From the NCBI GenBank assembly GCA_014727915.1, contig WJMO01000006.1:352001-416000 (forward strand): DNA of 64,000 bases. The letters are read 5' to 3'. This document shows positions 3,655 to 14,486 of this stretch, piece by piece. Both the position numbers and the translations under genes were made by a program. Position 1 is the stretch's first letter; every line of letters begins with the position of its first letter. The notes under the pieces were generated by a model that had not been told where the DNA came from, did no database searches, and saw only the letters and a list, made by a program, of their open reading frames with translations. This stretch comes from Candidatus Altiarchaeales archaeon. Lineage in GTDB: Archaea; Altiarchaeota; Altiarchaeia; IMC4; SCGC-AAA252-I15.

Positions 3655-4292
3655 TTCGCCTTCAGGTTCAACAGCATATGGTCTTCCTCGTAGGGTTCCA
3701 GGCTCAGCTGCTCGAGTATCTCGAACTTTTGTGTCAGCTTTTTCTTCTCCGCTTTGAATACTTTTTTGGGGTCTTTGGCGGAGTTTATGCTCCTTGCCTT
3801 TATTGATAGCAGGGCGTGTTTGAACTTGAAGGTGTCGTAGTTGTTCAAGAGTATTCCTGCCTGGTCTGGTTGGGCGACATCCTGGATTAGTACGTCTGCG
3901 TTTGCTATTGTGTTGCTGTACTCCCAGGGGTGGCGGGCGTCGGCGAGTATGGGTATCATGTTCTGCTTCCTGTCGCAGACCGGCAGTAGCTCGCGCATCA
4001 TGCGCTTGCTGAATTCGACGCAGTATACGGTTTCGGCTATGTCGGCTATGTGGGAGGCTGTTGTCCCGGAGGATGCTCCCAGGTAGAGCACGGACGAGCC
4101 GGGGGATATTGGAAATGTCTTCATGCCTTTCGCGAGGGCTGCGGCGACCTTGCTGCGGTGGGGGTCCCACATCCTGTATTCCTTTCCCTTCTTCTTGACT
4201 GTCTTCTCGCCGTAGACCCTGTAGCCGGGCGTTTTGTTATGTGTCGCGAGCTTCCGGTCTATTAGGTAGACGCCGGGGAACTTTTCCTTCAT
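3651..4292 (-). CDS. flpA: Fibrillarin-like rRNA/tRNA 2'-O-methyltransferase
   Basis: VYGEK, WDPHRSKVAAA, VLYLGASSGTTASH, QDVAQPDQA, LEPYEEDH. Confidence 0.97.
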   Translation of the reverse strand: MKEKFPGVYLIDRKLATHNKTPGYRVYGEKTVKKKGKEYRMWDPHRSKVAAALAKGMKTFPISPGSSVLYLGASSGTTASHIADIAETVYCVEFSKRMMRELLPVCDRKQNMIPILADARHPWEYSNTIANADVLIQDVAQPDQAGILLNNYDTFKFKHALLSIKARSINSAKDPKKVFKAEKKKLTQKFEILEQLSLEPYEEDHMLLNLKAK

Positions 4293-14383: not shown

Positions 14384-14422
14384 CGTTTAAGGATATGGTA
14401 GGATAAAAAGAAAAGGGGTTTT

Positions 14423-14486
14423 GCGTCAGAACTCATAAGCTTCGTCACCGGCCGCTTGGGCCTCGGCTCATTTGCTTCATCACGTG
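14423..14486 (-). ncRNA. Box C/D methylation guide sRNA (predicted guide for C34 of a CAU-anticodon tRNA)
   Basis: Minus strand reads C box GTGATGA (14483-14477), guide AGCAAATGAG, D' CCGA, hairpin GGCC-CAAGC-GGCC, C' GTGACGA, guide AGCTTATGAGTT, D box CTGA (14429-14426), then a T-rich run. Confidence 0.88.

Follow-up and report, generated by a model that had tools for sequence, protein, structure and literature searches.

A spacer between two protein-coding genes of an uncultivated archaeon carries a set of box-like motifs arranged as in a box C/D sRNA, which raises the question of whether a gene is present there and, if so, which nucleotide its RNA would modify. The spacer lies in the window, that is, the whole stretch of 64,000 nucleotides analyzed here, which forms part of contig C3 in a Candidatus Altiarchaeales genome (G000; 13 contigs, 1.81 Mb, 90.6% complete). 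Loci elsewhere in this genome are given by contig and position. A first-pass annotation, made from the window sequence alone, had proposed a box C/D sRNA on the minus strand at 14423-14486, aimed at the wobble base of a CAU tRNA.

Box architecture of the sRNA gene

The features of the sRNA and its neighborhood are collected in Table 1. All four boxes were found on the minus strand, the coordinates of the first-pass annotation being right within 2 nt, and the GGCC/GGCC hairpin that it had described between D' and C' was also seen. Box C, box D and a 2-bp CG/CG terminal stem, by which an archaeal box C/D sRNA is recognized, are all present, together with the internal D' and C' boxes also expected of such RNAs, here in the forms CCGA and GUGACGA. 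The four-box composite pattern gives a single match in the 64-kb window and is absent from all shuffled versions that preserve dinucleotides (0/100), while a similar strict C/D pattern matches three times in the 1.81-Mb genome and never in its reversed sequence. These counts, together with the orthologues described below, agree well with the identification as a box C/D sRNA. The spacing from C' to D is 12 nt, as is usual for archaeal C/D RNAs, and the same 12 nt across orthologues is imposed by the parsing pattern.

Table 1. Features of the sRNA locus and of the fibrillarin gene (window coordinates; all on the minus strand)
Feature	Position	Strand	Evidence or remark
Entire box C/D sRNA, about 61 nt with its 2-bp terminal stem	14424..14484	-	Sequence; pattern scan of window and shuffles; orthologues
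Box C, GUGAUGA (DNA GTGATGA)	14477..14483	-	Sequence; invariant in the alignment of four homologue sequences
D' spacer, AGCAAAUGAG (DNA AGCAAATGAG), 10 nt	14467..14476	-	Read as orphan, non-guiding
Box D', CCGA variant	14463..14466	-	Sequence; covaries with box C' UGACGA
Hairpin GGCC-CAAGC-GGCC closing the C'/D' motif	14450..14462	-	Sequence and fold
Hairpin arms, GGCC with GGCC, loop CAAGC	14462-14459 with 14453-14450	-	
Unpaired G, one nt, between hairpin and box C'		-	Sequence
Box C', GUGACGA variant (DNA GTGACGA)	14442..14448	-	Sequence
D guide, AGCUUAUGAGUU (DNA AGCTTATGAGTT), 12 nt	14430..14441	-	10/10 Watson-Crick with pre-tRNA; guide-target covariation
Box D, CUGA (DNA CTGA)	14426..14429	-	Sequence; invariant in the alignment
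Terminal stem, 2 bp	C14484-G14424, G14483-C14425	-	Sequence
TATA-like block, TAAATAAA	14507..14514	-	24-31 nt upstream of box C; predicted promoter
T-rich tract, UUUUCUUUUU	14405..14414	-	12 nt after box D; predicted terminator
Phosphoglucomutase/phosphomannomutase gene	16289-14937	-	Pfam
142-aa ORF	14940-14512	-	No Pfam match; overlaps mutase stop by 4 nt
317-aa protein, bPH_2 domain	14383-13430	-	Pfam
Fibrillarin gene (box C/D methyltransferase)	3666..4289 (C3:355666-356289)	-	PF01269, 266 bits

It should be noted that the minimum-energy fold of the sRNA is no better than that of shuffled sequences (z = 0.03), as is usual for C/D RNAs. At gathering thresholds Rfam gave no match in the window, and none of 20 orthologue loci attained a gathering-level score. 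Under permissive settings, the whole element aligns end to end with the C/D families sR41, sR2, sR-tMet and sR3, with scores of 19.4 bits for sR41 (E = 0.02; gathering 54) and 16.5 bits for sR-tMet (gathering 50).

Only two other strict C/D candidates occur in the genome, C3:440776-440824 (+) and C6:132050-132099 (-), both located outside the window. As a control of the method, both were found to match 23S rRNA with 10/10 pairs through their D' guides, at gene positions of about 2525 and 2471, respectively, and the D guide of the former matches 23S at about 2531. In two relatives (G014 and G015), the tRNA-Met guide RNA has a 12-nt D' spacer nearly identical to the D' guide of C3:440776-440824. 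As far as the sequences indicate, the two guides appear combined in one RNA there, which would be a case of guide reshuffling.

Proposed recognition of the tRNA precursor

The Rfam tRNA model returned 27 tRNA genes, many of them interrupted by introns of 70-190 nt. Whole-genome ARAGORN missed most intron-containing tRNAs. Of the 36 calls made by windowed ARAGORN some were false, and with this run the usable set rose to 33 tRNA genes; ARAGORN found no tRNA in the 64-kb window. Two genes carry a CAU anticodon. One, G000:C4:2-195, is a tRNA-Met (cat) according to ARAGORN, which places an intron of 119 nt directly after A37; the gene begins GCCGAAG.. and has the anticodon stem CCAGA. The other, C3:227118-227278, begins GGGCCTG.., has the anticodon stem CTCGA and resembles tRNA-Ile(GAU) in the anticodon arm. 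From general tRNA features, we take the former to be the elongator tRNA-Met and the latter to be the AUA-reading tRNA-Ile2, and we infer that the target is the elongator Met rather than the AUA-reading Ile tRNA. Neither carries the three G-C pairs that mark an initiator tRNA according to the criterion given in PMC7668247, and no initiator was found by the Rfam model or windowed ARAGORN among the tRNA genes of this 90.6%-complete genome.

Positions 2-11 of the D guide form 10/10 Watson-Crick pairs with the intron-containing gene at C4:2-195, the target being read as GACUCAUA/AGCG (exon/intron), i.e., ACUCAUA/AGCG. When the 33 tRNA genes were searched together with 16S and 23S rRNA (8071 nt), the next best match of the D guide scored 8, and 0/200 shuffled D guides reached 10, their maximum being 9.5. 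The 10-bp duplex spans A31 to A37 and then the intron bases A, G and C, the first three of the intron, which pair with guide positions 9-11. C34 is paired with G14434, which lies five nucleotides upstream of box D (D+5). The placement of C34 of a CAU tRNA at D+5 by the first-pass annotation is thus borne out by ten pairs. Its reading of a trailing AGCU as the start of an intron at 37/38 stood as regards pairing across the junction and three of the four bases, the real intron starting with AGCG. The check that it had suggested, a look for the complement in pre-tRNA-Met, led to C4:2-195, outside the window, and its alternative outcome, that no tRNA or rRNA would be complementary, does not apply to the D guide. 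The sRNA and this tRNA have separate genes, on contigs C3 and C4, respectively. As judged from this complementarity, the D guide most likely directs methylation onto the first anticodon base of the unspliced tRNA-Met.

An exact search with the 11-mer target returned only the complement in the sRNA itself and a coding-like site at C5:38255. The latter was treated as a chance match; the reversed control also gave one match.

The fold of the precursor was also considered. The computed minimum-energy fold contains neither a canonical splice motif nor a CUCA-UGAG helix. By eye, CUCA (32-35) can be paired with UGAG from the intron's 3' end to give a canonical bulge-helix-bulge. Since C34 lies in the central helix of this drawable structure, the guide would compete with the intron for the anticodon.

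The long tRNA introns (70-190 nt) have a repeated module in common, which consists of a C/T-rich hairpin and then ..TTCACCCCCAAAGAAAA. The introns of tRNA-Met, tRNA-Arg(TCT) and tRNA-Glu(TTC) contain nearly identical copies, and a partial copy is found beside tRNA-Lys; the module loci, all outside the window, are G000:C4:2-195, C3:488088-488240, C3:113963-114135 and C3:227118-227278. Its first half, ACCCCTTTTCTTTTT, is also present after box D of the sRNA (window 14399-14420) and has many matches in relatives. In sequence, the shared module looks like the result of intron spread between tRNA genes, a process described for Thermoproteales in PMC4090602.

Conservation and covariation of guide and target

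BLAST identified clear homologues in four relatives, from which a sequence model was built. This model matched 35/49 genomes of the order and 18/20 other genomes of the family. The string ..UAUGAG, two further nucleotides and CUGA was present in all 30 loci inspected, seven weaker model matches lying outside these 30. On the side of the target, the GCCGAAG-type tRNA with a long intron is conserved across the family, and the intron starts with AGC in 13/13 family genomes read. Sixteen genomes provided both genes; three further genomes, in which the tRNA is present and the sRNA was not parsed, fall outside these 16 pairs. The duplex at positions 2-11 retains 10/10 pairs in 14 of the 16 and 9/10 in the other two, and C34 keeps the exact D+5 register in 16/16.

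In genus g23, the two ends of the duplex have both undergone matching changes. Here, the tRNA has G31 instead of A31 and guide position 2 is C instead of U. Moreover, the intron starts with AGU, its third base being U instead of C, and guide position 11 is A instead of G. Guide positions 1 and 12 vary freely among orthologues, which fits the limitation of C/D guide duplexes to 10 bp. Covariation over the 16 genomes represents a natural experiment that supports a maximal 10-bp duplex at positions 2-11, as well as the use of intron bases for recognition. A 9-mer search in five relatives was too noisy for use. The best matches of the neighboring mutase gene were all titled Candidatus Altiarchaeota or Altiarchaeales.

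The D' spacer and the C'/D' module

For the D'/C' comparison, 26/27 orthologues could be parsed. The D' spacer, which at 10 nt departs from the usual 12-nt spacing, has this length in 18 of them; four others have 11 nt and four have 12 nt. In sequence it is not conserved and differs in every relative, the same genus included. In 25/26 orthologues, the D'-C' linker folds into a hairpin, the stems being quite different in sequence, and the box pairs are CCGA with UGACGA in 10, CUGA with UGAUGA in 15 and mixed in 1. Because the hairpin is kept and the D' and C' box variants covary, the C'/D' module can be regarded as a conserved structure.

In the search of the 33 tRNA genes, 16S and 23S, the best target of the D' spacer reached 7/9, and 200/200 shuffled spacers were equal or better. 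The only exact genomic complement besides its own gene is at C7:18045, antisense to what by eye is a probable gene start; no convincing D' target was found in the genome, the tRNA genes, 16S or 23S. The match at C7 extends over 13 bases (C7:18044-18056), being exact to the complement of the D' spacer and adjoining box bases, and was treated as chance. The D' spacer is best read as an orphan. According to section 6 of PMC7994747, tRNA-targeting archaeal C/D RNAs usually have one orphan guide.

The resemblance of the D' spacer to the D guide that was recorded in the first-pass annotation is real in this genome only, where 8/10 positions are identical; in 25 relatives the figure is 1-5 of 10-12. 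It is conceivable, if rather unlikely, that the spacer is a recent internal copy of the D guide in this genome alone. If true, this would capture a new guide arising through duplication inside one C/D RNA, and the copy, with its UU to AA differences, might be drifting toward another target or might bind a second CAU anticodon loop weakly.

Gene neighborhood, putative expression signals and protein machinery

The sRNA sits between the 142-aa ORF and the bPH_2 gene, and all neighbors are on the minus strand. It adjoins the 3' end of the mutase gene in 19/29 other loci, 16 of them co-oriented and 3 convergent. This synteny with the mutase supports orthology and argues for a promoter belonging to the sRNA itself. 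The 142-aa ORF has a homologue in the same place in one relative only (G013), and mostly the sRNA directly follows the mutase. The TATA-like block overlaps the stop codon of the 142-aa ORF. Across 26 orthologues, positions -32 to -27 relative to box C retain an A/T-rich block (A+T fraction 0.8-1.0), and the TATA-like block would act as the sRNA's own promoter. Similar T-tracts follow several orthologues, and the T-rich tract after box D is a putative terminator.

The genome encodes L7Ae, Nop5 and fibrillarin. The last was recovered in the window, where the first-pass annotation had placed it, and Nop5 and L7Ae are on contigs other than that of the sRNA. In archaea, fibrillarin and Nop5 usually form an adjacent gene pair. 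Here they do not, since Nop5 (G000:C6:128310-128978) and fibrillarin are on different contigs, both far from the contig ends. Some 3 kb away from the Nop5 gene there is a 23S-directed C/D candidate.

Proposed mechanism and alternatives

Taken together, the boxes, the complementarity, the conservation, the covariation and the presence of the protein genes make it very probable that the locus encodes an independently transcribed C/D sRNA guiding Cm34 on the unspliced elongator pre-tRNA-Met. In the mechanism proposed, an sRNA of about 61 nt would be transcribed from its own gene and would assemble with L7Ae, Nop5 and fibrillarin. Subsequently, the D guide would pair with the unspliced precursor over 10 bp (A31-A37 and AGC), bringing C34 opposite the fifth guide base, where fibrillarin would 2'-O-methylate the wobble cytidine. 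This action is expected before splicing because the pairing spans the exon-intron junction. The C'/D' half would be a structural kink-turn closed by the hairpin, with the 10-nt spacer guiding nothing. It is predicted that methylation of C34 depends on the AGC start of the intron and on G14434, is indifferent to changes in the D' spacer, and does not occur with a CUCAUUUGCU substrate.

Other explanations place the action of the RNA elsewhere. The guide might act on the second CAU tRNA, probably the AUA-reading tRNA-Ile2, or on both, since the shared A31 and C32-A37 give 7 Watson-Crick pairs and 1 G-U with C3:227118-227278 and up to 9 pairs could be drawn by eye for the equivalent precursor of relative G010. 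However, the covariation at positions 2 and 11 tracks the GCCGAAG-type tRNA only, the two extra intron pairs are specific to it, and in genus g23 guides with C at position 2 occur together with a GGGCCC-type tRNA that retains A31, so that such a target appears improbable. It had also been suggested in the first-pass annotation that the D' guide binds a second CAU tRNA or the intron, and the RNA would then be a dual guide that also directs methylation there. The 8/10 identity with the D guide speaks for this, as do the complementarity of the spacer to CUCAU and the fact that the tRNA set recovered from the incomplete genome lacks the initiator and roughly a dozen other genes. The suggestion was not supported by the analysis of the spacer, whose best match is at the level of shuffled spacers, whose sole non-self exact complement is antisense to a probable gene start, and whose sequence is not kept even within a genus. 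On a CUCAU site, moreover, the D'+5 base of the 10-nt spacer would face U36, not C34, and full complementarity would call for U at position 37, where tRNAs carry a purine. With one orphan guide being usual in such RNAs, as described above, we consider a dual guide very improbable.

The remaining explanations question the activity or the gene itself. The guide core UGAG is the same as the intron 3' strand that, by eye, is able to pair with CUCA, and the sRNA might be mainly a folding or splicing chaperone that keeps the anticodon off the intron, methylation being secondary or absent. The chance of this is slim, given the exact D+5 position of C34 in every genome pair, a methyltransferase encoded in the genome, and the activity of the Haloferax counterpart, for which methylation is the demonstrated one as related in PMC4033218 and PMC6601510. 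Box-like motifs that arose by chance in intergenic sequence, without any gene, would be in keeping with the undistinguished fold energy, but the absence of the pattern from 100 shuffles and the order-wide conservation with covariation and synteny leave this a negligible probability.

Relation to known guides and significance

Grosjean et al. 2008 (PMC2584109, section 13) describe Cm34 of the intron-containing tRNA-Met as guided by a non-intronic C/D sRNA whose pairing takes in intron bases, so that methylation has to precede splicing; Pyrococcus sR49 is cited there as a predicted Cm34 guide (Clouet d'Orval 2001), and 18 candidates were found. Haloferax sR-tMet is reported as a separately encoded C/D RNA guiding Cm34 (Joardar et al. 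2011, via PMC4033218). The analogy with sR-tMet drawn in the first-pass annotation is apt. The Haloferax volcanii RNA (RF02163) is likewise reported to have a separate gene, the D-guide core ..UAUGAG.., C34 at D+5 and pairing across the junction, and in the RF02163 consensus, too, D' and C' are joined by a stem and are of the CCGA and UGACGA types, respectively. The differences are that the present RNA stays well below the RF02163 gathering threshold, belongs to a different phylum and has canonical terminal C and D boxes, and that the 5' part of the guide is GCCCU in sR-tMet and AGCUU here, in step with a different intron start.

The best Rfam match, sR41 (RF01126), is alike in size and in its consensus D guide, GCCCUAUGAGcg followed by CUGA in the same register, and differs in a short D'-C' linker without a hairpin; its gathering threshold is not reached either. 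The consensus D guides of sR41 and sR-tMet share a ..CUAUGAG.. core in the same register as the present guide. Rfam sR41 and Pyrococcus sR49 are presumably the same RNA. The functional features of the sR-tMet and sR49 type, i.e., C34 at D+5, junction pairing and a separate gene, are all found here.

The C/D RNA in the tRNA-Trp intron of Euryarchaeota (Cm34 and Um39) is also a C34 guide acting on an unspliced precursor. It differs in being located inside the intron of its own target, whereas the present sRNA is encoded elsewhere, beside a sugar-phosphate mutase gene. The tRNA gene at C11:99288-99551, called Arg(cct) by ARAGORN, is by eye a tRNA-Trp (CCA) with a 190-nt intron. By eye, this intron contains a CCGA-hairpin-UGACGA module like that of the sRNA, and the guide before CCGA would put C34 of this same tRNA at D'+5, with no clear box C or D. 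In human cells, SNORD97 and SCARNA97 are C/D guides for Cm34 of elongator tRNA-Met(CAU), as outlined in Vitali and Kiss 2019 (PMC6601510). As described there, these eukaryotic RNAs are encoded in introns, and the two act together on a tRNA that lacks an intron.

In the literature searched, no paper linking Altiarchaeota with box C/D RNAs or tRNA introns was found, and the 18 candidates of PMC2584109 may include further taxa. The sRNA is a well-supported further example of the kind known from Haloferax sR-tMet and Pyrococcus sR49. For annotation, the analysis names a gene and its target that are missed by standard tools. It extends the separately encoded Cm34 guide for unspliced tRNA-Met from Haloferax and Pyrococcus to uncultivated Candidatus Altiarchaeota and, together with human SNORD97, adds to the case for an ancient RNA-guided Cm34 of tRNA-Met.
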